From IMG/VR virus record IMGVR_UViG_3300035505_000652: a DNA stretch of 64,000 nucleotides. One strand, 5' to 3'. The notes under the pieces were generated by a model that was not told where the DNA came from, did not search any database, and saw only the letters and a list, made by a program, of their open reading frames with translations. Below, one piece after another: positions 11,875-61,865 of this stretch (position 1 is its first letter; the number at the start of each line of letters is the position of its first letter). A program made the position numbers and the translations under genes. The DNA comes from an uncultured virus (IMG/VR IMGVR_UViG_3300035505_000652) (lineage: Duplodnaviria; Heunggongvirae; Uroviricota; Caudoviricetes).

Positions 11875-12549
11875 ATGGAAAAAACAACAATAAAAATCCA
11901 TTGGAAAGAAGAAAACGTCACCGATAAGAGAGTATTTTATAAGGGTGACGTCGTGAAATACATAGATAAGGAGGGGTCTGAAACACTTGGAGTTATAGTA
12001 AGCAATAATTTATGCTTATTCCATTCCAAGGTATTTCAAGTTATACCAATAGACGACCCCTCCAAAACCAACATCCAAGATGAGGTCAAAAATGAAGACC
12101 TGATATCTCGGTCTTGGATTGTTGAATTTGTTGGCAGGGTTGACCGAGGAACCCTACGGAGGCTTGACAATGCCATAGTCAGGCATCATGAAATTAAAGG
12201 CATGGGCGAATACCAAATAGGAGATGTATATATGGCAAACATCCCAGAATACGAAGATAGTAGTATTCAAAAAGGTTTTCGCCCAGTTATAGTTGTTAGC
12301 GGTGAAGAGAATGAGGAGGAAAACTTCCATGTCTTACCGTTGACAACGAAAGACAAAAAGAAAATGCGTACTCATGTGAAAGTATCGGCTTCCGATACTT
12401 TCATGGAAAGAGATAGCATCATCATGGCTGAGTCTGAAATGACATTGCCTAAAATGAACCTAATCAAAAAGATTGGGACGTTTGATGAAGCTATACAGGG
12501 GCTGGTGTTGAATGCGATAAAAGTTCAGCATCAAATAAGCATTTGTTGA
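11875..12549 (+). CDS. tandem PemK/MazF-fold protein
   Basis: two repeats: KGDVV..GVIVSNN..QVIPI and GDVYMA..SIQKGFRPVIVVS..VLPLTT..HV. Confidence 0.7.
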   Translation: MEKTTIKIHWKEENVTDKRVFYKGDVVKYIDKEGSETLGVIVSNNLCLFHSKVFQVIPIDDPSKTNIQDEVKNEDLISRSWIVEFVGRVDRGTLRRLDNAIVRHHEIKGMGEYQIGDVYMANIPEYEDSSIQKGFRPVIVVSGEENEEENFHVLPLTTKDKKKMRTHVKVSASDTFMERDSIIMAESEMTLPKMNLIKKIGTFDEAIQGLVLNAIKVQHQISIC

Positions 12550-19794: not shown

Positions 19795-20784
19795 TTAAAA
19801 ACTAAGTTTTCCTGAATATGTCTTTTTAGCTTCCTTTAAATCCTTTAACAACAACTTGGTTTTATTGCTGTTTGGATATTTTATGCAATACCTTGTAATG
19901 ATTTTTGAAAGATTTTCCAAATTGGCATCATCTTTGCTTGTGGCTGCTTCTTTGAAGGTTTCCCAATCATTGCATGGCCAATTGTCTTCAGATTCTCCAA
20001 TAAAAGTTGCAACCTCTTCATTTGTTAAGGCATACTTTGGAACTCCAAGCAATTCAACTCCTGCACATATCGCCCAAAAATCAAATCTGTTTCCTTCAAT
20101 GGTGTCAATTGCATTGCAAATATCAAAATAGTCTCTATCATTTTGGGTATATTGGATATAGTAGATATTGGGATACCAATCGCTATTATTCCTTCTAAAA
20201 TAATACCCGTCTTTTAGATAACATCCCCTATTCGAATCATGCATGAATTGATGGCTTGGCTGTGACAATATGCCTTCCCTGTTTAATTTCATAAAGATTT
20301 TGGGAAGCTGCTTCTTGTCTACATTTAGAGCCATTGCCATATCTTCAATGGTGACGAACTTTGCATTTTCCTTCTTGTATTTTTGTATAAGGCTTTTAAC
20401 CTCATTGTATAAGGCTTCATCCTTGACTTTCCTTACATGATGCTTAAGGACTTTATGGGATGTAAGGTTGTCAAAATTATCCATTTCTCTTTTCCAAAAA
20501 TACATGTCCTGATAAAGGCAATCAAGCTTGTCTTTCAAGATTTTATTTCCAACCAAGTATTTGCTTCCATATTTTAAATTGGATGATAGCTGGGAACTGA
20601 CCCTTATTATTTCCTTTTTAATATTCCAAATCTCTTCTTTTATTTCGTTGGCATCCTTTGAGCCCTCATCTTTTGGATTTCTTATATATGTTATATCATG
20701 CCTTCCTCCATATCCATCTGATACATAGTTTATATCGTTTCCTTCACGAAACATCTTTAAGACCTCCTTTTTATAAATAATCAT
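19795..20784 (-). CDS. hypothetical protein with internal winged-HTH-like segment
   Basis: VTIEDMAMALNVDKKQLPKIFMKLNREGIL; the real start is probably the downstream ATG (MFREG). Confidence 0.65.
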   Translation of the reverse strand: MIIYKKEVLKMFREGNDINYVSDGYGGRHDITYIRNPKDEGSKDANEIKEEIWNIKKEIIRVSSQLSSNLKYGSKYLVGNKILKDKLDCLYQDMYFWKREMDNFDNLTSHKVLKHHVRKVKDEALYNEVKSLIQKYKKENAKFVTIEDMAMALNVDKKQLPKIFMKLNREGILSQPSHQFMHDSNRGCYLKDGYYFRRNNSDWYPNIYYIQYTQNDRDYFDICNAIDTIEGNRFDFWAICAGVELLGVPKYALTNEEVATFIGESEDNWPCNDWETFKEAATSKDDANLENLSKIITRYCIKYPNSNKTKLLLKDLKEAKKTYSGKLSF

Positions 20785-21376
20785 TTTTTTATATATTATA
20801 TGTTTTAAAATTCAATATATATTTCCTTAAAAAAAATTATAGCACAAATCTATAAAAATTTCAATACAAAGCAATAAGAAACATAAAGAAAAACAACAAT
20901 TGTAAAGATAATAAAGGCTTAGAAATTTTGTTTATGGTTTTAACCTTTTCCCCTCCTTTATTATTCCTCTTTTTATTTCCCTTAATGGAATATGATAAAG
21001 CCTAAGATTTTTGGGTTAATAGATAAATTCACATAGATGTGAATTTATGGGTTATATAAAAAGAGAGGTTTTGTATATTTTAATAAATAGCATAGCAAGG
21101 TTTAATGCAGATAAAGTATTGGAAATTGGTTGGATGATTAAATACAAAAGAAATTATTTAATACAAAACAATTTCTTTTATTGTAGTTCTTTCCACATCA
21201 TCTTAAAGTTCAATCATGACCATGCATATGAGACAGTGGTTTTCCAATAATTTGCCATATTGTATAATAAATGCGGTTGGATTACTTTCTTTATTGGAAA
21301 TAAGGCTTTATTTCAAGGGTTGTTTTAGGGAGCAGCAAAATTTTTTTTAATCATGCAAATTTTTTAAATTTTCTTA

Positions 21377-21405
21377 TTGACAATTGCATAATATAGATGT
21401 ATAAT
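21377..21405 (+). promoter_or_regulatory. consensus promoter for the leader and tRNA operon
   Basis: TTGACA-17bp-TATAAT. Confidence 0.85.
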
Positions 21406-21474
21406 AAAGAAAATTAAAGATTGCAAGGCAATCAAACATTAAATTAAAAATATAAGGAAAGGAGAAAATTAAAA

Positions 21475-21600
21475 ATGAGTACAATGATGACTAACACATT
21501 AGAGCTTAAAAAGTCAGCCCCCATTAAACCATTCGCGTGGAAACGAGTATGGTCTGTTTGTGTTGGTCAAAGTCAAAATGGAAATTTCCTGCATGGATAA
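21475..21600 (+). CDS. 41-aa putative leader peptide
   Basis: AAAGGAG RBS; MSTMMTNTLELKKSAPIKPFAWKRVWSVCVGQSQNGNFLHG*. Confidence 0.65.
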   Translation: MSTMMTNTLELKKSAPIKPFAWKRVWSVCVGQSQNGNFLHG

Positions 21601-21657
21601 TGTATTCCATGTAAAACTCATTTGTATATTTTCTTCGCTATTGAAATATATAAATTC

Positions 21658-21723
21658 AAAGCCATTTACTTTAACCAACAATCAAATTAGATTGTAGGTG
21701 TAGGTAAGTGGCTTTTTATATTT
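21658..21723 (+). terminator. long hairpin with U tract before the first tRNA (attenuator candidate)
   Basis: AAAGCCATTTACT...GGTAAGTGGCTTT then ttatattt. Confidence 0.65.
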
Positions 21724-21732
21724 CAAATTTAT

Positions 21733-21805
21733 GGGCGCATAGTTTAATTGGTAGAACACAGAACTTTTAATTCTGATGATGGGGGTTCAAGTCCCCCTGC
21801 ACCCA
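21733..21805 (+). tRNA. tRNA-Lys(UUU)
   Basis: cloverleaf; anticodon arm CAGAA-CTTTTAA-TTCTG; GGTTCAAGT T-loop. Confidence 0.9.
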
Positions 21806-21832
21806 CTCCATACAATTTGTATGGCTTGATAA

Positions 21833-21904
21833 TGGGAATGAGGTGTAAAGGTCTGCACACGTCGCTTGGGACGATGGGGAGGGGTTCGAGTCCCACATTT
21901 CCAA
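21833..21904 (+). tRNA. tRNA-Pro(UGG), atypical
   Basis: anticodon arm CGTCG-CTTGGGA-CGATG; irregular acceptor and T stems. Confidence 0.8.
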
Positions 21905-21935
21905 TCATCCAAGGAATATCATCTTGGATTTGCAT

Positions 21936-22009
21936 GGATACATAGTTTAACTGGTAGAACACAGAACTTTTAATTCTGATGATGGAGGGTTCAAATCCCC
22001 CTGTATCCA
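21936..22009 (+). tRNA. tRNA-Lys(UUU)
   Basis: GGATACA/TGTATCC acceptor stem; CTTTTAA loop. Confidence 0.9.
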
Positions 22010-22032
22010 TTCATATTTATATATGAGTTTAT

Positions 22033-22104
22033 GGGACTATGGTGTAACGGCAAGCATAGAGGTCTCCAAAACCTTTGATTTGGGTTCGAATCCCAATGGT
22101 CCTG
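22033..22104 (+). tRNA. tRNA-Trp(CCA)
   Basis: GAGGT-CTCCAAA-ACCTT arm; G73. Confidence 0.9.
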
Positions 22105-22128
22105 CTTGTTTTTTTAAAACATAAATAA

Positions 22129-22200
22129 TGGGAATGAGGTGTAAAGGTCTGCACACGTCGTTTGGGACGATGGGGAGGGGTTCAAGTCCCACATTTCCAA
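22129..22200 (+). tRNA. tRNA-Pro(UGG), atypical, second copy
   Basis: two substitutions relative to 21833-21904. Confidence 0.8.
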
Positions 22201-22231
22201 TCATCCAAGGAATATCGTCTTGGATTTGCAT

Positions 22232-22304
22232 GGGCGTATAGTTTAATTGGTAAAATACGAAACTCTTAATTTTGAAGATGGGGGTTCAAGTCCCCCTGCG
22301 CCTA
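22232..22304 (+). tRNA. tRNA-Lys(CUU)
   Basis: CGAAA-CTCTTAA-TTTTG arm. Confidence 0.88.
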
Positions 22305-22335
22305 TTTTAATTTTTAAACAAAGGAGGGGAGATTT

Positions 22336-22740
22336 ATGAAGATTACTTACAATTTTGGAATATTGAAAAACAAATTAATAGGCATTGAACTTAATGGGGA
22401 GATTTGGTTTAATGTTTTAAAGAATTTCAAGCAGAATGGGGAGAATATATTTTTGAAGTTTGAAAATTCCACATTGCAAATCAATTGCCAGCATTTCCTT
22501 CACATGAAGGTTGTGGAAAAGAATAATGTTGTTTGTTTTGTGGAATCAAATAATGACAAGTTAATAAATGGAATGTTTTTGTACTACATGTACAACACCC
22601 AGGGAATACCTTATGATATTTCCAAGGATTTGTTGGAGGAGAAGGGTTTTGAGGTTGATGAAGAAGGGTTTAACATTTTATACAAGACAAACCAAGACCT
22701 GTCAAAAGGAACATTCTTGAATAAAGATGCTTTCTCCTAA
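22336..22740 (+). CDS. small protein ending in an alanyl-tRNA-synthetase-like helical segment
   Basis: MYNTQGIPYDISKDLLEEKGFEVDEEGF resembles the AlaRS LYDTYGFPxDLT...GxxVDxxGF segment. Confidence 0.65.
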   Translation: MKITYNFGILKNKLIGIELNGEIWFNVLKNFKQNGENIFLKFENSTLQINCQHFLHMKVVEKNNVVCFVESNNDKLINGMFLYYMYNTQGIPYDISKDLLEEKGFEVDEEGFNILYKTNQDLSKGTFLNKDAFS

Positions 22741-22818
22741 AACCAAAAATAATGACATTATGCAATTATTAAAAATTTTTTGGAAAATGTTTGCATATGA
22801 TATATTAAAGAATTTAAA

Positions 22819-22924
22819 GCAGGCTTCGCTTGTGTGAAACCAATAATGGTTCCTTCTAAAATTTCAAATAATACTTAAAAAAAATGAAAAGCGTTAAGCT
22901 TTTTTACCATTATGAATATCCTGC
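22819..22924 (+). ncRNA. unannotated structured RNA, copy 1
   Basis: GCAGG/CCTGC and ATAATGGT/ACCATTAT stems enclosing TCCTTCTAAAA...AATAATAC and a small hairpin. Confidence 0.6.
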
Positions 22925-22949
22925 AAAATTCATTTAGTAGCAAGTGTTC

Positions 22950-23021
22950 GTCTCCATAGTTTAAGGGAAAGAACAATGCACTACGAATGCATAGATTTGG
23001 GTTCGAATCCCAATGGAGATG
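22950..23021 (+). tRNA. tRNA-Arg(ACG)
   Basis: ATGCA-CTACGAA-TGCAT arm. Confidence 0.9.
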
Positions 23022-23055
23022 CTTTAAAAAAAATGTAAGATAATGCAAAAAACAG

Positions 23056-23084
23056 TTGACAACCTAATTAAATTATGCTATACT
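23056..23084 (+). promoter_or_regulatory. sigma-A promoter with extended -10
   Basis: TTGACA-17bp-TATACT with TG extension. Confidence 0.8.
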
Positions 23085-23107
23085 AAATAAGTAATCAATC
23101 AAAACAA

Positions 23108-23191
23108 GCAGGTGTGGTGGAATAGGCAGACACGGCAGACTCAAAATCTGCAGCCTTCCAAGGCGTGTGGGTTCAAGTCCCACCACCTGCA
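23108..23191 (+). tRNA. tRNA-Leu(CAA)
   Basis: GCAGA-CTCAAAA-TCTGC arm; long variable arm. Confidence 0.92.
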
Positions 23192-23198
23192 CTAAATT

Positions 23199-23291
23199 AG
23201 GCCAAGGGAACTTGCTTCCTTCTAAAACAAGAAAAAGGAATTAATAATACAAGTTGGCATGGGCATCCATGACAAGTTCATCGAGATACCT
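23199..23291 (+). ncRNA. unannotated structured RNA, copy 2
   Basis: AGG/CCT and GAACTTG/CAAGTTC stems enclosing TTCCTTCTAAAA...AATAATAC and a CATGG/CCATG hairpin. Confidence 0.55.
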
Positions 23292-23460
23292 TATCTGCTT
23301 TGCAGAATGCCAACATAACGAAATTATTAGCAGTTTTAATATCCTAATTTAAAAATTCAAAAATGTTCTTTAGATTCATTAAAAAAAGCTATGAATAATA
23401 TTCATAGCTTTTATTTTTTTACTCAATTATATTATTTAATCCTTTTTAGGTTTTTAGTCC

Positions 23461-24093
23461 TTATAGTATCCCGCCAAATTTTTCGCATATTTTGTAATAT
23501 GCATCCTTTAACCTTTGCTTTACGTTATATCCAAATACTGCATACATGAACATGGCCACGCCTTCAATAAACAATGCCATCATTAAAACAAGAAGCAGGA
23601 TTATTATTAAAGATGAACATATCTTTCCTAAAAACATTGTTTGGTAAAGCTTCAATACCAAGGAAGATATGCCCAAGTCAATAAGGGTGTTTACTCCAAG
23701 ACACACAATGCTTAAAAATAAATTTTCAAGATAATCTGGTAAGGTGTAGATTTCATTCCCCAACAACACATCCAAGATGCTTTCTTCCAATACCCCTGAT
23801 GAAATCTTTATGATTTCCCTAATGGAGAATAAAAACATCCACAAACCCAATATAAAAAGAAAATTGGAAAAGAATATTGGAATCAAGTAAGCGAAATCAA
23901 ACTTATGCATTGTCTCCAATAAAAGCTCTTCTCTAAACAATAAGGTATTTGCCATAAGGGAGAATTTATACATTAATAAACAGACAACACCCCAAGCAAA
24001 TGAATTAATAGTCCATTCCATTAAAACCTTATTTTTGTTATCCATAAATATCATTCCTTTCTTTACAACTATCCTATCTTTACCATAAAACAT
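23461..24093 (-). CDS. hypothetical membrane protein
   Basis: 4 hydrophobic segments; start uncertain. Confidence 0.7.
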   Translation of the reverse strand: MFYGKDRIVVKKGMIFMDNKNKVLMEWTINSFAWGVVCLLMYKFSLMANTLLFREELLLETMHKFDFAYLIPIFFSNFLFILGLWMFLFSIREIIKISSGVLEESILDVLLGNEIYTLPDYLENLFLSIVCLGVNTLIDLGISSLVLKLYQTMFLGKICSSLIIILLLVLMMALFIEGVAMFMYAVFGYNVKQRLKDAYYKICEKFGGIL

Positions 24094-34291: not shown

Positions 34292-35134
34292 TTAAACATC
34301 TTCATCAATGATTACAGTATCATTTATTAAATTTGCATTTTTGGGCTTTGGATACATCCATGTATGGGGTTTCTTTGGAACTTCGCTTGGGGTTTTCTTC
34401 TTTTTATCTACAACCAATTTGTTGGATTTGTCTTCATTGGATGCATCTTTTAAATTTTGATTGGAAGGGGCGACTTGGATTTCTTGTTTTCTTTGCTTGA
34501 CAAGTTCATTCAAATTGTTTGTAAGGATTTCCTCGATTTGGAATTCAAATCCTTTATAAAAGGCAATGCCTTCCTTCTGCAAAGCTGTCCTATTCCTAAA
34601 ACCTTCCCTTTCGTTTGCAAGCTCCTCATATTCCTTAAAAGATACTCCTTTGCTGATACTCATGCCCAATTCTCTTTTTAAATAATAGTTAAGGAGGACG
34701 TTTGTGTTGGAGTGTTTGCGGTAAATTAAATAGGAATATACATTATCTTTGTATAACGAAAACGCCCTTCCAGCAAACATTACAAAACCCTTCGTGTAGT
34801 ATTGGTGGAATATGTAGGAAAATTCTTGGGCTATGCATGCAGTTGCTTCCTGCGCATAGTTGTGTTTCAAAGTCTTGATATAGGCAGCGGAATCCAACAC
34901 TATTATATTGACTTCATCGGTCGCCATATATATTAAGAAATTTGCGGACATTCTTTTACAAGCCATTTTTAATGCATATGTAAAAGTGCCTTCGGAATCA
35001 TCCAATAAATTAATTTGTTTGTTGCCTGTGATGTGCCTTCCATCCAAGCGTACAACAAACGGTCTATTCCTATTCAATTTTATATTGTATTTGCTTTCAA
35101 TTTTGTGGAAAAATTCTATTCGGTTCAAGTCCAT
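34292..35134 (-). CDS. tRNA(His) guanylyltransferase Thg1-family protein
   Basis: VVRLDGR, YMATDEVNI, FAGRAF, YLIYR motifs. Confidence 0.8.
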   Translation of the reverse strand: MDLNRIEFFHKIESKYNIKLNRNRPFVVRLDGRHITGNKQINLLDDSEGTFTYALKMACKRMSANFLIYMATDEVNIIVLDSAAYIKTLKHNYAQEATACIAQEFSYIFHQYYTKGFVMFAGRAFSLYKDNVYSYLIYRKHSNTNVLLNYYLKRELGMSISKGVSFKEYEELANEREGFRNRTALQKEGIAFYKGFEFQIEEILTNNLNELVKQRKQEIQVAPSNQNLKDASNEDKSNKLVVDKKKKTPSEVPKKPHTWMYPKPKNANLINDTVIIDEDV

Positions 35135-36019: not shown

Positions 36020-36841
36020 CTACATTGCAATGGGCATATCTTCAACTTCATCATCTTCTGGAGCTTCAATGGTATCCTTGATATAATCATCAAAAATCTC
36101 CTTCATTGAAGCATCATAAAGGTTTCCTATTGAAAAATCGCCTTGGTGGTCATATGAATAATCGCAGTCTGGAACAACTTCACCGTTTGAAGATACATAA
36201 ACCTCTTCAACAACCCTGTTTATAAACTGCCACTCGCCATCAACCTTTTCCCAATCGCCATCAATATACATTTGCGAAACTCTGGTAGGGACTTTTCCAA
36301 TACCATTCTCATTGGCTTTTCCTTCATCCCTGATATATTTTGCAAAGTCATCAGATTCCTCTTTATCTGTAGAATAATATGATAAACTTCTATATTTCAA
36401 GTAGTTCTCCATTGGAATTGGTTCATGATAGGCATCCCTTGACACGCAGACAGCTCCGCAAGCACAATAATCCTCCATGTTGAAATATCCCTTGGAATCA
36501 AGCATATTGTTGCCGAAATAATTGGCAGTCGTGTATTCCATCCATTCATTCATGACATCAATGTTTTCTTGCTTGAATTCCTTGCCGTTTGTAACAAGGT
36601 AAAATGAGCCTACAAAAATGCTCTTTTCCTTGACAACTTGCAAGATGTATTTGATAATGTCAAGATTTAAAAACGGTTCGCCTCCTGAAAAGGTAATAGT
36701 GCCGACTTCATCAACTCCTTCAAAAGTCTTATCAACTATCTCCCTTGTCATGTCTTGGTTCTCTGCATCCCCTCTTAAGCAATGCTTGCAAGCCATGTTG
36801 CACCTTCTTGTTACTTCCATTATTAAACTATCTATTCTCAT
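36020..36841 (-). CDS. radical SAM protein
   Basis: CNMACKHC, FSGGEP, VTNG, C-terminal GEVVPDC..IGN. Confidence 0.9.
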   Translation of the reverse strand: MRIDSLIMEVTRRCNMACKHCLRGDAENQDMTREIVDKTFEGVDEVGTITFSGGEPFLNLDIIKYILQVVKEKSIFVGSFYLVTNGKEFKQENIDVMNEWMEYTTANYFGNNMLDSKGYFNMEDYCACGAVCVSRDAYHEPIPMENYLKYRSLSYYSTDKEESDDFAKYIRDEGKANENGIGKVPTRVSQMYIDGDWEKVDGEWQFINRVVEEVYVSSNGEVVPDCDYSYDHQGDFSIGNLYDASMKEIFDDYIKDTIEAPEDDEVEDMPIAM

Positions 36842-39431: not shown

Positions 39432-40424
39432 CTATTGGCATATTAAATTGTTTGCATTGAAGCTTCCGTTTTTTTCAGTCACCAAGGTATATGAGGTACC
39501 CCTATGGGCTTTGATTTCATTTAACTGCCTTACCGGCTGCCACAACCTATTGTCTATACGGACAAAGTTTGCAGATTTGGGAACATTGTCCTTGAATTGG
39601 ATTCTAAATGATTGTTCCCCGTCGATAAATAAAGAATATCCTCCATAAGAATTAATATTCGCAACCATGATGCCGATTTGATAAATCAATTTATTGCAGG
39701 AATCCTTCAATATATAATATTCATCGGCAAACTTTCCCTTGTCTTCAGAAAAGCTCATTAAAAACGTATCCTGCATTTTGTCTGGAAGATAAAGCAAAGC
39801 CATTGGAATGATTGTTTCTTTATTCAATCTTGAAGTCATGCAAGCATTAAAAAAATATTCATCTTTAATCAAGCATTTCAAATACCCTTTTGATTTTGTA
39901 ATCGTGCAATCCAAATGCTTTGTTCTTTTTTCAACCTCTTCCAAGTATTTTTCCTTTATATTGATTGTTACAGTCTTGTTTTTAATTGATACGGAGTTCT
40001 TAATCATAAACTTTCCAATCAACCAGCAATCGTCATCATTTAGATTATATGTGTTCGTAGATTTATTCACTTTGCCCATCATGATAAAATCCTTTTTGGT
40101 TAAATCCTTTGCCTTTTTCCAAGTAGGCTCGCTAAATGCCCTTTCTGACAATTGGGATTGATTGTCCCATTTTCTTTTCATTTCTCTTACGTAGAAAAGT
40201 TGGTTTCCATGGACAAAGGTTGCAGGGCTTCCTTGGACTTGCAATCTGTAATGCCCAGCGATTTGTTTCTTGCCTATTTCAACAACCTTTTCAAATCTGT
40301 TGTTGGATGTAAGCACCATATCCCCCACTTTAATGGCTTCTATTGGCATGGGACCTTTGTCTGTCATCACCAAGGTTCCTCTCATGAAACCTTTTGTTTC
40401 CATCTTCAAACCACATCCTTTCAA
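39432..40424 (-). CDS. free-standing Hint/intein-like protein
   Basis: GFMRGTLVMTDKGPMPIEAIKVGDMVLT (block A) and YTLVTEKNGSFNANNLICQ (blocks F/G). Confidence 0.8.
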   Translation of the reverse strand: MKGCGLKMETKGFMRGTLVMTDKGPMPIEAIKVGDMVLTSNNRFEKVVEIGKKQIAGHYRLQVQGSPATFVHGNQLFYVREMKRKWDNQSQLSERAFSEPTWKKAKDLTKKDFIMMGKVNKSTNTYNLNDDDCWLIGKFMIKNSVSIKNKTVTINIKEKYLEEVEKRTKHLDCTITKSKGYLKCLIKDEYFFNACMTSRLNKETIIPMALLYLPDKMQDTFLMSFSEDKGKFADEYYILKDSCNKLIYQIGIMVANINSYGGYSLFIDGEQSFRIQFKDNVPKSANFVRIDNRLWQPVRQLNEIKAHRGTSYTLVTEKNGSFNANNLICQ

Positions 40425-47534: not shown

Positions 47535-49841
47535 ATGGATTTAAAGAATGAAATATTATTAAGAAGAAAGAATATGTTTGAAGTCAATTTGGATGTCGAG
47601 GTTCTCGACATGGATGTTGAAGCCGACAGGGAGGCTCAAAAGGTAAAGGAGACATCTGTTGCATCTGTTGCCAAGAATTTGACTTTTTATGGATATATGC
47701 TTGATGAAGCTATTGTTGAAAAGCTTAAGAATGCTTCTTATGATGATATAGTAAAGTGGTATTTCTCCATAAGAGAGATTGTCAGGGACCTTGTTGGTTC
47801 AAGGGAGAACATGGAGCCATTATATAAGAATTTTCCAAATGACACCATGGAACCAGAAAAAAGCGAGATGTATCTTGCTTCATACCTCTATTTTATCTCA
47901 CATGGACAAATCGCCCCAGACGAATATGAGTTCAAGCCAGAGCTTAATGAGTTCTGCAATTTAACCTTGATTAAGGAAGCTGATGAAGAAGCTTTTAATG
48001 AAATCTTCACAAACCTTTTATCAAGCAAGGTTGCATTGGGGGATGTCGATAAGAAAGACCTTAATTATTTTGTTTGCAACGTTGATAACTTTTATGAGCT
48101 GATACCAGATACAATCCCTAACAAGGAAAACCTTATCAGCTTTACAAATTTATGTATCGCCCAGTTTGGCTATGACAGCGAGCAGGTTAATTCCTTGGCA
48201 AAGGTATACAAGACCGCAACAGACGTGTTAAGGCTTGCCGTTGCTATGAGTGACGGGGATACATCCTTGGCAAAAAAGACAAAGTTCAAGTCATTTAAAA
48301 GAAGTGAAAGAAGATTTCTTTTAAACCTTCTTGACAATGTTAAACATCCATTAGAGGATATGTTTAGATACAAGACTGAATGGATTGCATTAGGGGAAGT
48401 CCTCCATCCAGGAGACTTTTCCAACAAGTACAAGAATGCCTATGAGAACTTTTCAAAGCTTAGAAATAATGAAAAAGTGCCATCATTCTATGGCAAGGTA
48501 AATGCGGCTTTTGATTTCAAGGATTTAAAGGCTTTGTTAAAGCTGCTTTCAAGCAGACCAGGCGAGTTTGCAAGGACTTTGGATAGGGTGTTGTCTGCAT
48601 TTGCTTCAAATGAGGAATCCCAAGAAATCCTTGAAGCATTTGCAAAGGTCGCTTCCAAAGTTGAAACAACTGTCCTTATAGGGTTGATGAACCACATGAA
48701 GGATAGAAAGAACTCCCTTAATACAAGGATTTTCTTCCCAAAGGGACATATAACAAAGGCATTCTTTATTGAGAACAATATGAAGCCTTTAGCAGATGAG
48801 GTTGTTGACAAGGCAATTGAAATCTGCAAAGATACGATTATTTCCATTTACAAGGGAAAGGAAGCCATGGGCAAAGTTTACCTTGATGAAGCATTAAAAG
48901 AATATGTATTCCCAATGACTCTAAGAAATGCAGGAAGGGCGTTAAAGCCTCTTGCAAGGGGAACAAAGCTTTATCTAAAAGACAACTGCACTACTGCAAG
49001 GGTGTTTGTTTATTGGCATGAAACCCCATCCCAAAGGAATATTGACCTTGATTTGAGTGTAATCCTTTTAAATGAGGATTATGAACTTATAGATTACTGC
49101 TACTATGGCAACCTTGGGGAAAAGCATATCAGGGAGGCAGGATGCTTCCATTCAGGTGATATGAGGGAAGCCCCAAACGGCGCAACAGAGAATATCGACC
49201 TTGACTTTGAAAAACTCAAAGCCAAGAAGGTAAAATATGTCCTCACATGCGTACATTCATTCACACTAGAACCATTTTATGAGTTGCAGGAGGCATTTGT
49301 AGGCATCATGGAAAGAGAGTGCCCAGAAAGCGGAGAGGTTTTCGAGCCTGCAACTGTTGTCACACGTTCAGACCTTGCAACAAGCAGTCAGACCTCATTG
49401 GCAATGATGGTTGATGTGGATGAGCGTTCCATGACTTGGTTGGACCTTTCATCTGATGCATCTAATGCATATGATGTTGCAAACAATGTAAGAAACTCAA
49501 AGAGCGCATTAATCCCAATGACAAAGGCTTTCATGAATAGGAACTATGCGACAATTTATGACATTATAAGCCTTAATGTTGAAGCAAGAGGCGAGTTTGT
49601 TGACAACAAGGCTGATGCAGATTACATCTTTTCCATGGAAGGATATGTTGAACCAGAAGTCGATGAAACAGACGACCAAGCTAATGATGAGGTTGTTGAA
49701 GATGTCAAGGATGATGAATTGGAAGGCAATGTTGGTGATGAATCCAAGGAAGATGAAGTTCCAGAAGAAGTTGTTGAACTTCCAAAGAGGATTTTAGTGA
49801 CACCTTTTGACATTGATGTGTTGATTGGCAATTATTTATAA
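47535..49841 (+). CDS. large helical protein with C-terminal TerD-like domain
   Basis: TATDVLR, LGEVLHPG, RPGEFARTLD; TerD-like IDLDLS..HSGD..ATENID. Confidence 0.75.
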   Translation: MDLKNEILLRRKNMFEVNLDVEVLDMDVEADREAQKVKETSVASVAKNLTFYGYMLDEAIVEKLKNASYDDIVKWYFSIREIVRDLVGSRENMEPLYKNFPNDTMEPEKSEMYLASYLYFISHGQIAPDEYEFKPELNEFCNLTLIKEADEEAFNEIFTNLLSSKVALGDVDKKDLNYFVCNVDNFYELIPDTIPNKENLISFTNLCIAQFGYDSEQVNSLAKVYKTATDVLRLAVAMSDGDTSLAKKTKFKSFKRSERRFLLNLLDNVKHPLEDMFRYKTEWIALGEVLHPGDFSNKYKNAYENFSKLRNNEKVPSFYGKVNAAFDFKDLKALLKLLSSRPGEFARTLDRVLSAFASNEESQEILEAFAKVASKVETTVLIGLMNHMKDRKNSLNTRIFFPKGHITKAFFIENNMKPLADEVVDKAIEICKDTIISIYKGKEAMGKVYLDEALKEYVFPMTLRNAGRALKPLARGTKLYLKDNCTTARVFVYWHETPSQRNIDLDLSVILLNEDYELIDYCYYGNLGEKHIREAGCFHSGDMREAPNGATENIDLDFEKLKAKKVKYVLTCVHSFTLEPFYELQEAFVGIMERECPESGEVFEPATVVTRSDLATSSQTSLAMMVDVDERSMTWLDLSSDASNAYDVANNVRNSKSALIPMTKAFMNRNYATIYDIISLNVEARGEFVDNKADADYIFSMEGYVEPEVDETDDQANDEVVEDVKDDELEGNVGDESKEDEVPEEVVELPKRILVTPFDIDVLIGNYL

Positions 49842-60004: not shown

Positions 60005-60928
60005 TTATCTAATCAAGCCGACACTTTTGGCTTTGTTAAGCCATTCTGGATATTCTCCAAGAAGCCTTCCATACAAGTCATTGTCAGACAATCTTGTTAA
60101 ATCGTTTACAGAGAAGAAGTTTGCATTGTCGATATATCTTCCCTCCATGGTATCCAATTGCTTCAAGTATTTGAAGTTTGAGCTTCCAATGCCTACAAAC
60201 TGCCAAAAGATAGGGTATCTTGAAATGTCTGTAATAACCCTTGTCGTTTGGGCTTTATCTGAATTGTCGCCATCCGTAATAAATAATACAAGTGTTGGGA
60301 TTGCAGCAGGCTCTTCAATAATGTATTTTTTGTAAATATCCTGCATTACTGGAGCATACTCTGTCCCGCCCATGTAAAATCTTTGCGTCAATTGGTTGTT
60401 GTTGATGTAATTGTAAAAATTGTTTAATGAAATGTCTGGTATCCTATGGAAGTCATTTGAGAACACCCATGCCTCCATTACACCGTTATCATCAAATTGC
60501 ATTGCGACAGGAAGAAGCCTTTCAATTACCTGTTGTACTTTGCCGCTTGCATAGAGTCCAGACATGGAACCGCTTATATCCATAACCATGCATACCCTTG
60601 AAATAAGCCCGTTCAACTCTTTCTTTTCCAAGCAAAGGCTTTGGATTGACTGCTTGCTTAAATTCAATTGTTGGATTCTCTGCTCCTTATCAAGGTTTAA
60701 TGATTGGATGTTGCTTTGATTAAGGGTATTGTTATACCCGTTTTGGTTTGGATAATTGTTATACCCATTTTGGTTTGGATAGTTATTGTATCCATTATTG
60801 TAGTTATTTTGGTTTGGATAATTGTTATATCCATTTTGGTTTGGATAGCCATTATAGTTGTTTCCCATATTGTTGGGATATTGCTGTTGACCAGTCAAGC
60901 CATTTAAAAGTTTATCAAGAAATCCCAT
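60005..60928 (-). CDS. vWA-domain (TerF-like) protein with N-terminal YPNQNGYNN repeats
   Basis: MIDAS DISGSM, GGTEYAP, FITDG, FWQFVGIG, DNANFF. Confidence 0.85.
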   Translation of the reverse strand: MGFLDKLLNGLTGQQQYPNNMGNNYNGYPNQNGYNNYPNQNNYNNGYNNYPNQNGYNNYPNQNGYNNTLNQSNIQSLNLDKEQRIQQLNLSKQSIQSLCLEKKELNGLISRVCMVMDISGSMSGLYASGKVQQVIERLLPVAMQFDDNGVMEAWVFSNDFHRIPDISLNNFYNYINNNQLTQRFYMGGTEYAPVMQDIYKKYIIEEPAAIPTLVLFITDGDNSDKAQTTRVITDISRYPIFWQFVGIGSSNFKYLKQLDTMEGRYIDNANFFSVNDLTRLSDNDLYGRLLGEYPEWLNKAKSVGLIR

Positions 60929-60929
60929 A

Positions 60930-61865
60930 TTATTGTACCTCCAAACTTTCTTCTTCAACTATTGCTTCACTTAAAATCTCGCTTTCAACTTCTTGTGTTG
61001 AACTTTCTTCAACGCTTGTTTCTACTTCTTTTGTTTCATTGGTTTCATAAGACGTGGATTTGCTGGTAGAATTTGGTTTTACTACCTCTATGCTTTCAAT
61101 CTCAAAATCATAGCCAAGCTGGTCAAGCAATTCCTCATTTTCAACAGCCCTTCCAAGAACAATGCATCTTTGATAGAGTGCCATGTTCCCGCCATACTTT
61201 GCAAGGTATTCAAGATATGAAGTATCCACATCACTTTGAAGGTCTGTATCTGTTACTTCAATCTCATCAAGGCATATGTAGAAATTATTGCTGCTGTACA
61301 ATGTCTGGTATATGCAATACTTCATAGGATAGACTTCATCAACTTGTTCCTCTCTATTGTATACCCTGTCTGTTGTGACGAAATACCATCTTGCTCTGTC
61401 AGCATTCCTTCTTGTATCAGTCTTTTCATAACTGTACTTGTATGCTATCTTTGTGCCATCCTCAACCAATTGATAAAACCAAGCTGTTGCCTTTGGTGCG
61501 GTATCATCATACATTTTAAATGTTACAGTTCCAAGACCTTTGAATTTTATCTTAACCAAGGTATCCCCATCTTCTACGGTTGTCTGATATTTTTCATTGA
61601 CCATAAAAGCAGAAAAGGCTTCATCAATTTCATCCATCTCATCATCTGTAAATGATACAACTCCGCTGTATACGGTCTCTGGCACGTCAGCAACCTCTAT
61701 ATCGCTTGAAGATGTTTCAATCTCTGTGCTGGTTTCAGTCTCATCATCAATGACATCATTATTTGTATTGGTTTCATCTTTTCTTAAAACCATAGCTAAT
61801 ATAACCACTCCAGCCAAAAGGATTGTGGCAAAAAAGGTTATTAGTTTATTTTCTTTTTTGGACAT
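60930..61865 (-). CDS. membrane-anchored, degenerate cyclophilin-like protein
   Basis: GTVTFKMYDDTAPKA..F and GGNMALYQRCIVLGRAVE echo the two ends of the cyclophilin fold. Confidence 0.5.
   Translation of the reverse strand: MSKKENKLITFFATILLAGVVILAMVLRKDETNTNNDVIDDETETSTEIETSSSDIEVADVPETVYSGVVSFTDDEMDEIDEAFSAFMVNEKYQTTVEDGDTLVKIKFKGLGTVTFKMYDDTAPKATAWFYQLVEDGTKIAYKYSYEKTDTRRNADRARWYFVTTDRVYNREEQVDEVYPMKYCIYQTLYSSNNFYICLDEIEVTDTDLQSDVDTSYLEYLAKYGGNMALYQRCIVLGRAVENEELLDQLGYDFEIESIEVVKPNSTSKSTSYETNETKEVETSVEESSTQEVESEILSEAIVEEESLEVQ

Follow-up and report, generated by a model that had tools for sequence, protein, structure and literature searches.

Two short regions of a tRNA operon, found in a 64,000-nucleotide stretch of DNA (IMG/VR record IMGVR_UViG_3300035505_000652; hereafter the window), may be paralogs that encode a small structured RNA from a family not described before, which would be freed from tRNA precursors. 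We give this reading a probability of roughly 0.5. The broader statement that the two copies are real, selected and transcribed RNAs is probably true. They are of a known kind, the small RNAs of tRNA operons, but they lie outside every listed Rfam family. The evidence consists of two sequence segments that are identical in both copies, of helices that differ in sequence and yet stay paired, and of a position beside tRNA genes that is covered by RNA-library contigs.

The window and its tRNA array

The window is low-GC DNA (0.25-0.40 per 2 kb) that reads well under translation table 11, with its longest ORFs intact. Another genetic code was rejected, as the long-ORF cover is 0.69 with table 11, 0.72 with TGA read and 0.69 with TAG read. 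Cellular functions are coded in it (FtsH, an RNase J-like beta-CASP protein, PBP1A, DHFR, type I restriction-modification and a prepilin peptidase), and it looks like the cellular DNA of an uncultured low-GC gut bacterium. Its FtsH is 38-48% identical to those of 3 genomes (best 48%); in 301 genomes of one phylum the best full-length matches reach 43-45% and partial stretches up to 49%. The public runs that hold parts of the window are animal-gut metatranscriptomes. A phage origin was rejected: 6 of 7 neighbouring proteins lack a PHROG match, phage DNA matches are confined to tRNA-Leu, and a tblastn search of phages with P0001, a protein encoded in the tRNA array, gave 7 weak matches of the alanyl-tRNA synthetase (AlaRS) type. 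A plasmid DNA search returned short low-identity pieces only.

Several other genes of the window were recorded in passing. The C-terminal half of a 224-aa ORF at 11875-12549 (+) is a PemK/MazF-like toxin domain (E 2.1e-16), and the ORF is about twice as long as the 109-position Pfam model. One block with a cytosine methylase, comprising 34292-35134 (-), 36020-36841 (-) and 39432-40424 (-), contains a radical-SAM/SPASM protein, a Hint-domain protein and a weak Thg1-like match (tRNA-His guanylyltransferase family; E 9.6e-5, below the cut-off). The 768-aa product of 47535-49841 (+) matches the MXAN_6230/SCO0854 RING-domain family (E 5.8e-121, below the NCBIfam cut-off) and has a TerD domain. A vWA-TerF-like protein is encoded 10 kb from it at 60005-60958 (-), and both are unrelated to the RNAs as far as is visible.

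The plus-strand tRNA array extends over 21733-23192 and was called with ARAGORN and Rfam in the order Lys, Pro, Lys, Trp, Pro-like, Lys, Arg, Leu, the second Pro-like tRNA (22130-22199) being a Rfam call only. The 134-aa ORF 22336-22740 lies within the array. A 160-nt duplication (21829-21988 and 22125-22284, 90% identical) carries a Pro(TGG)-like tRNA and part of a tRNA-Lys. The two Pro(TGG)-like tRNAs score low, at 36 bits each, and ARAGORN calls the first only. Just 5' of the array, a perfect consensus promoter, TTGACA-17-TATAAT (12/12), stands at 21377-21405 (+) and leads, as read from the sequence, to a strong ribosome-binding site and an unlisted ORF of about 41 codons from 21476 (21377-21601 in all).

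Both copies directly adjoin tRNA genes and lie on the strand of the 8 tRNA genes. Copy 1 abuts tRNA-Arg and copy 2 abuts tRNA-Leu, an interleaving that an earlier note on this DNA had described correctly. The tRNA neighbours and the bounds of the copies are as follows.

22950..23022, plus strand: tRNA-Arg(ACG), directly 3' of copy 1
23108..23192, plus strand: tRNA-Leu(CAA), directly 5' of copy 2
22803..22941, plus strand: copy 1 RNA at its widest bounds, with a long imperfect closing stem (22803-15 / 22926-41) in the MFE and centroid folds
22819..22924, plus strand: copy 1 core, with P1 formed by GCAGG (22819-23) and CCTGC (22920-24) and an extra hairpin at 22825-38
23193..23351, plus strand: copy 2 RNA at revised bounds, with a 9-bp P1 formed by TAAATTAGG (23193-23201) and CCTAATTTA (23343-23351) in the MFE and centroid folds
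23280..23337, plus strand: copy 2-specific insert of 58 nt with two small hairpins

At its widest bounds, copy 1 ends 8 nt before tRNA-Arg. For copy 2 the earlier note had given 23199-23291 (93 nt), with a start 7 nt after tRNA-Leu. A better-placed outer stem replaces both values, since it makes the RNA about 159 nt long and puts its start 1-2 nt after tRNA-Leu. The revised P1 also places AATATCCT before the 3' strand, which is the same place that this direct repeat (D10) takes in copy 1.

Invariant segments and paired changes

The 12-mer TTCCTTCTAAAA has three exact sites in the window (20189, 22850 and 23216), compared with 0.08 expected, and none of 100 shuffles reaches three. When it is combined with the 8-mer in the pattern TTCCTTCTAAAA-N(0-30)-AATAATAC, the window matches are the two copies only (0.00 expected; 0/100 shuffles), so that the conserved segments claimed for both copies were indeed found at both, and as a pair nowhere else in the window.

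22850..22861, plus strand: 12-mer TTCCTTCTAAAA of copy 1, with 11 of its 12 bases predicted to be unpaired at P 0.68-0.99
22867..22874, plus strand: 8-mer AATAATAC of copy 1, from the pattern scan
23216..23227, plus strand: 12-mer TTCCTTCTAAAA of copy 2, its first 8 bases paired with AAGGAA (23236-41) in the MFE fold
23243..23250, plus strand: 8-mer AATAATAC of copy 2, from the pattern scan

The 12-mer is thus predicted to be open in copy 1 and mostly paired in copy 2. Over their whole sequences the similarity of the copies is marginal, with a local alignment score equalled by 22 of 500 shuffles. A dispersed repeat or mobile element was rejected, only the 20 invariant bases being common to the copies.

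Around these segments, each copy can form a helix P2 of 7-8 bp, starting 0-2 nt upstream of the 12-mer and closing just after a hairpin P3 of 5-7 bp. P2 is perfect in both copies, and it is formed by ATAATGGT (22843-50) and ACCATTAT (22906-13) in copy 1 and by GAACTTG (23208-14) and CAAGTTC (23273-79) in copy 2.

22843..22913, plus strand: P2 of copy 1 with the 71 nt that it spans, from the fold and the shuffle test
23208..23279, plus strand: P2 of copy 2 with the 72 nt that it spans, from the fold and the shuffle test
22886..22904, plus strand: P3 hairpin of copy 1, with an A/U-rich stem and the loop GTTAA, followed by a T run
23258..23271, plus strand: P3 hairpin of copy 2 (CATGG/CCATG), from the fold

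From its first to its last base, P2 therefore spans almost the same distance in the two copies. When the flanks were shuffled 5000 times, a 7-bp stem formed at the P2 position in fractions of 0.044 and 0.014; among 20000 natural positions of the window the fraction with such a stem is 0.048. P3 ends 0-1 nt before the 3' strand of P2 in both copies, at a background of 0.02 per position, so the chance of helix and hairpin together is about 0.05 x 0.02 per site. Both the second stem, different in sequence yet paired, and the small hairpin before the 3' strand had been reported before and were recovered here.

A hand-drawn map of the three helices has 17 positions common to the copies; both partners have changed at 9 of them, the pair is the same at the other 8, and no pairing is lost. 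Because this map was fitted to the structure and to two sequences, it is suggestive and no proof. The folding energies are unremarkable: z is -2.32 for copy 1 at approximately the bounds first proposed and -1.45 for a wider stretch, and it is -0.46 for copy 2 at approximately the bounds first proposed. The value of -4.81 for 23193-23425 belongs to a stretch that includes the terminator hairpin. Together, the invariant segments and the differing yet paired stems support the description of the copies as related, structured, non-coding elements.

Relatives were sought by several routes. A pattern scan of viral contigs gave 44 matches, all 44 of which lacked the flanking helices on reading, and a pattern of tRNA T-arm plus 12-mer had no match in metagenome contigs. 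No locus of the P0001 family was found in metagenome or viral contigs, nor any of the P0002 family in viral contigs. The homolog hunt in sampled genomes gave 0/200 and 0/3 at E <= 1e-15; in a further hunt all 31 genomes matched at E <= 0.001, with every match inside a 585-627-aa frame of AlaRS length. Searching the DNA of 401 genomes produced one match, to tRNA-Leu alone (84% identity), and the region downstream of it holds just a terminator. Finally, the tRNA-Leu pattern had no match in a viral scan, and the tRNA-Arg pattern matched 3 unrelated phage arrays without the motif. Since no homolog was found outside this genome, conservation rests on the two paralogs.

These results bear directly on the explanation that the copies have no function, being a duplicated spacer whose resemblance and helices are leftover or chance in AT-rich DNA. 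It would account for there being two copies only, for their marginal overall similarity and weak fold z-scores and for the lack of homologs, and short repeats are common in such AT-rich DNA, with 26 direct-repeat families counted over 2.1 kb. A decaying duplicate, however, should not keep 20 bases while altering 9 of 17 pairs on both sides with none broken, and for P2 and P3 to arise together in each of the two copies the chance is about (0.05 x 0.02) squared. We consider this explanation unlikely, if still worth weighing.

A neighbouring protein with an AlaRS subdomain

Upstream of copy 1 the array encodes a small protein.

22336..22740, plus strand: P0001 (134 aa), ending 78 nt before copy 1 and including a helical subdomain of AlaRS

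P0001 is built of an N-terminal beta-rich domain and the helical subdomain of the alanyl-tRNA synthetase catalytic fragment, with profile matches to Pfam PF01411 (E 2.4e-6) and NCBIfam NF002436 (E 3.8e-9). Its AlphaFold model has a pLDDT of 90, and the last 52 residues or so superpose on E. coli AlaRS 3hxu with an rmsd of 1.0 A. That region of AlaRS contacts the tRNA acceptor stem. Of the nine homologs collected, a single one is a fragment (79 aa), and the eight others have the full length of 133-135 aa at 59-73% identity. As a stand-alone protein, P0001 belongs to a conserved family. It is possible that P0001 is a co-transcript or a partner of copy 1.

The copies might be protein-binding RNAs (a scaffold or a decoy), with the invariant single-stranded segments as the protein recognition site and P0001 as the candidate partner. 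Sequence-invariant loops on variable stems would suit such a site, the candidate is both close to copy 1 and a conserved family with the AlaRS subdomain, and an RNA-library contig bridges the P0001 3' end and copy 1. Against this, copy 2 has no P0001-type neighbour, and the Foldseek E-values of P0001 are all >0.001. We regard this explanation as quite unlikely.

Transcription context and proposed release from tRNA precursors

Two signals frame tRNA-Leu and copy 2.

23056..23084, plus strand: promoter-like TTGACA-17-TATACT with TG (11/12), 5' of tRNA-Leu
23384..23412, plus strand: terminator hairpin of 13 bp with a T run (inverted repeat I4)

The terminator is probably bidirectional, because there is an A run on its other side. 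The order 3' of the promoter is tRNA-Leu, copy 2 and terminator, and copy 2 therefore occupies the tRNA 3' trailer. Copy 1 is flanked by the ORF stop at 22740 and by the start of tRNA-Arg at 22950. An extended -10 had been proposed in front of it: the sequence TGATATATT is present at 22798-22806, but the promoter scan does not return it and an RNA-library contig begins upstream of it, at 22726.

RNA-library assemblies (Logan; three gut libraries from 3 studies) contain short contigs over both copies, which show presence in RNA libraries and prove neither transcription nor strand, ends or level. The whole contigs cover 22395-22696, 22726-23058, 22940-23090 and 23208-23385, all at least 99% alike to the window. 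The contig 22726-23058 covers copy 1 and tRNA-Arg, and 23208-23385 covers copy 2 to the terminator; 21300-22394 and 23386-23500 have no contigs in these libraries. The single indel is a base missing at 23261 in copy 2, where the end of the P3 5' strand and the first loop base together form a run of three G. The copies are likely co-transcribed with the tRNA operon. A minus-strand reading, with a promoter and a ribosome-binding site, was rejected: the downstream mini-ORFs, read by eye, differ between the copies, and minus-strand transcription coming from the 210-aa gene is stopped at the terminator.

We propose that both RNAs, copy 1 at about 22803-22941 and copy 2 at 23193-23351, are transcribed within the plus-strand tRNA operon and that the enzymes which trim the neighbouring tRNAs would free them. 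RNase P, in maturing the tRNA-Arg 5' end, would define the limit of copy 1 on its 3' side. Copy 2 would begin where the tRNA-Leu 3' end is trimmed, and on its 3' side it would extend to the terminator.

The same position would suit a cis-acting element of the operon, either a processing platform or a boxA-like Nus-factor site, which would assist RNA polymerase or nucleases in dealing with the operon. The 12-mer is pyrimidine-rich and then A-rich, and it sits inside leader and trailer helices beside tRNAs that are likely co-transcribed; excerpts of PMC5725501 document boxA-type control outside rRNA operons and give the gamma-proteobacterial boxA consensus as GYTCTTTAANA. A scan for this consensus with at most 2 mismatches had no match at 22846-22861 or 23212-23227, the two 12-mer sites, among the matches listed (200 of 297, reaching window position ~40,800), which counts against a boxA, although a gamma-proteobacterial consensus is a weak test for this organism. 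Furthermore, copy 2 stands just before the terminator, where antitermination would be purposeless. We judge a cis-acting role improbable.

Comparison with known RNAs

The Rfam search was performed with the Rfam 15 covariance models on the window, on the 2.1-kb region and on each copy alone. Only tRNAs reach the gathering score in the window and no family matches either copy, and in this respect the claim of an unannotated RNA was borne out. The best scores on the copies alone are 16.9 bits (CRISPR-DR55, gathering 41) and, within copy 2, 16.0 bits (gathering 50); anything higher (21.5 bits at most) falls on the terminator hairpin. A CRISPR repeat was rejected on that score against its gathering value and because the Pfam matches of 50 scanned ORFs contain no Cas-type domain. 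A tRNA or degenerate tRNA was rejected as well: the copies have no T-arm, and ARAGORN and the Rfam tRNA model find nothing there. As for coding, no ORF of at least 40 aa lies wholly inside either copy. The ORFs that touch them have 32 aa, 36 aa, 25 aa (23167-23244, half in tRNA-Leu) and 57 aa (minus strand, mostly over tRNA-Arg), and the 57-aa ORF has no homolog.

In layout, the closest known case is in the tRNA cluster of phage T4, where rnaD (species 2, 119 nt) and rnaC (species 1, 139 nt) directly follow tRNA-Arg. Neither is in Rfam, and in an excerpt of a review (PMC3014915) their roles are given as unknown. As in T4, there are two RNAs of 100-160 nt in a tRNA cluster, on the tRNA strand and beside tRNA-Arg, and the cluster also includes an ORF. 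Taken as a small non-tRNA RNA gene in a tRNA cluster on the same strand, the T4 type thus describes the copies in layout. Homology was rejected, the local alignments being no better than shuffles, which reach the score in 154, 137, 10 and 318 of 500 for the four pairs. Moreover, rnaC has a tRNA-like T-arm and the copies do not, and unlike the T4 RNAs the copies lie in cellular-looking DNA, are non-adjacent and share an invariant bipartite motif.

The second comparison is with the 3' external transcribed spacer (3' ETS) of an E. coli tRNA, an sRNA sponge according to Lalaouna et al. 2015 as cited in a passage of PMC9514646. Copy 2 likewise stands between the last tRNA (tRNA-Leu) and the operon terminator, it would likewise be freed by tRNA processing, and a base-pairing role is plausible for it; by analogy, we take the spacer as the nearest functional model for copy 2. 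In contrast to the spacer, to which homology is not expected, the copies are a paralogous pair in which a multi-helix fold is kept, and copy 1 is a leader or an internal spacer. Both copies do lie in the transcribed spacers of a tRNA operon, copy 2 between tRNA-Leu and the terminator and copy 1 between ORF 22336-22740 and tRNA-Arg, with RNA-library contigs spanning both.

Some bacterial Y-like RNAs are located among tRNA genes. The earlier note had speculated about a Y-RNA-like RNA with the TerD-domain protein at 47535 as its Ro-like partner. Like bacterial Y RNAs (YrlA, with Rsr/Ro), which are closed stem-loop RNAs that may lie near tRNA-like sequences, the copies have a closed stem with internal loops and are placed among tRNA genes, but we dismiss this explanation as very improbable, because the copies have no tRNA-like domain or T-arm, no Rfam model (Y RNA included) matches them at E values up to 10, a Pfam scan found the TROVE/Ro domain in none of 50 window ORFs of at least 100 aa, and the 47535 protein is a RING/TerD family member encoded 24 kb away.

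A possible pairing partner

In the preferred reading, that of small RNAs freed from tRNA precursors, the two paralogs share a closed multi-helix fold, with P1 as the closing stem and P2 round a core of 71-72 nt that ends in P3. This fold would present the two invariant segments, UUCCUUCUAAAA and AAUAAUAC, as a recognition surface, which might most likely be a base-pairing seed. That the copies act by base pairing through these segments is a tentative proposal that we would not press.

The third site of the 12-mer provides the candidate partner.

20189..20206, plus strand: TTCCTTCTAAAATAATAC, the 12-mer and 8-mer merged, inside the minus-strand ORF 19795-20784

There is no P2-type helix at this site. 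Because the merged site lies within an ORF on the minus strand, the mRNA of that ORF has an 18-nt perfect complement of both invariant segments, and the site is the only perfect partner site in the window. The duplex energy at the site is -15.5 kcal/mol; it ranks 7th of the 8 sites listed for copy 1 and is not among the 8 listed for copy 2. As read from the sequence, the 18-nt complement is a lead for pairing, and the seed might, at low confidence, have its partner here.

The ORF 19795-20784 (-) encodes an orphan of 329 aa with no Pfam, NCBIfam or PHROG match, the true start of which is probably the Met at residue 11. Of its five relatives, one is 98% identical and 319 aa long; the other four have 182-195 aa and end near residue 212, so that the ORF has a C-terminal extension of about 120 aa when compared with those four. 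The 20189 site lies in a variable stretch of the ORF, just before a conserved SDW motif.

The fullest version of the proposal is that the copies represent an undescribed class of bacterial regulatory RNA, carried in tRNA operons and freed by the enzymes of tRNA processing. Set on a frame of three covarying helices, its invariant two-part seed, with a linker of variable length between the parts, would pair with one uninterrupted stretch of 18 nt in the mRNA of the fast-evolving orphan gene 19795-20784, perhaps in concert with the adjacent, AlaRS-derived P0001 as a dedicated RNA-protein pair. We offer this version as a long shot.

Implications

To our knowledge, small RNAs in tRNA operons have been known since phage T4, nearly all of them without an assigned function and most missing from RNA databases. 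The pair described here is an unusually clean handle on such RNAs, with its invariant 20-base surface, its changed yet paired stems and an 18-nt perfect site in a nearby gene. If relatives lack the fold, the pair would be one more genome-specific spacer structure. If they share it, the copies would found a new RNA family of an uncultured gut lineage, together with a testable target.
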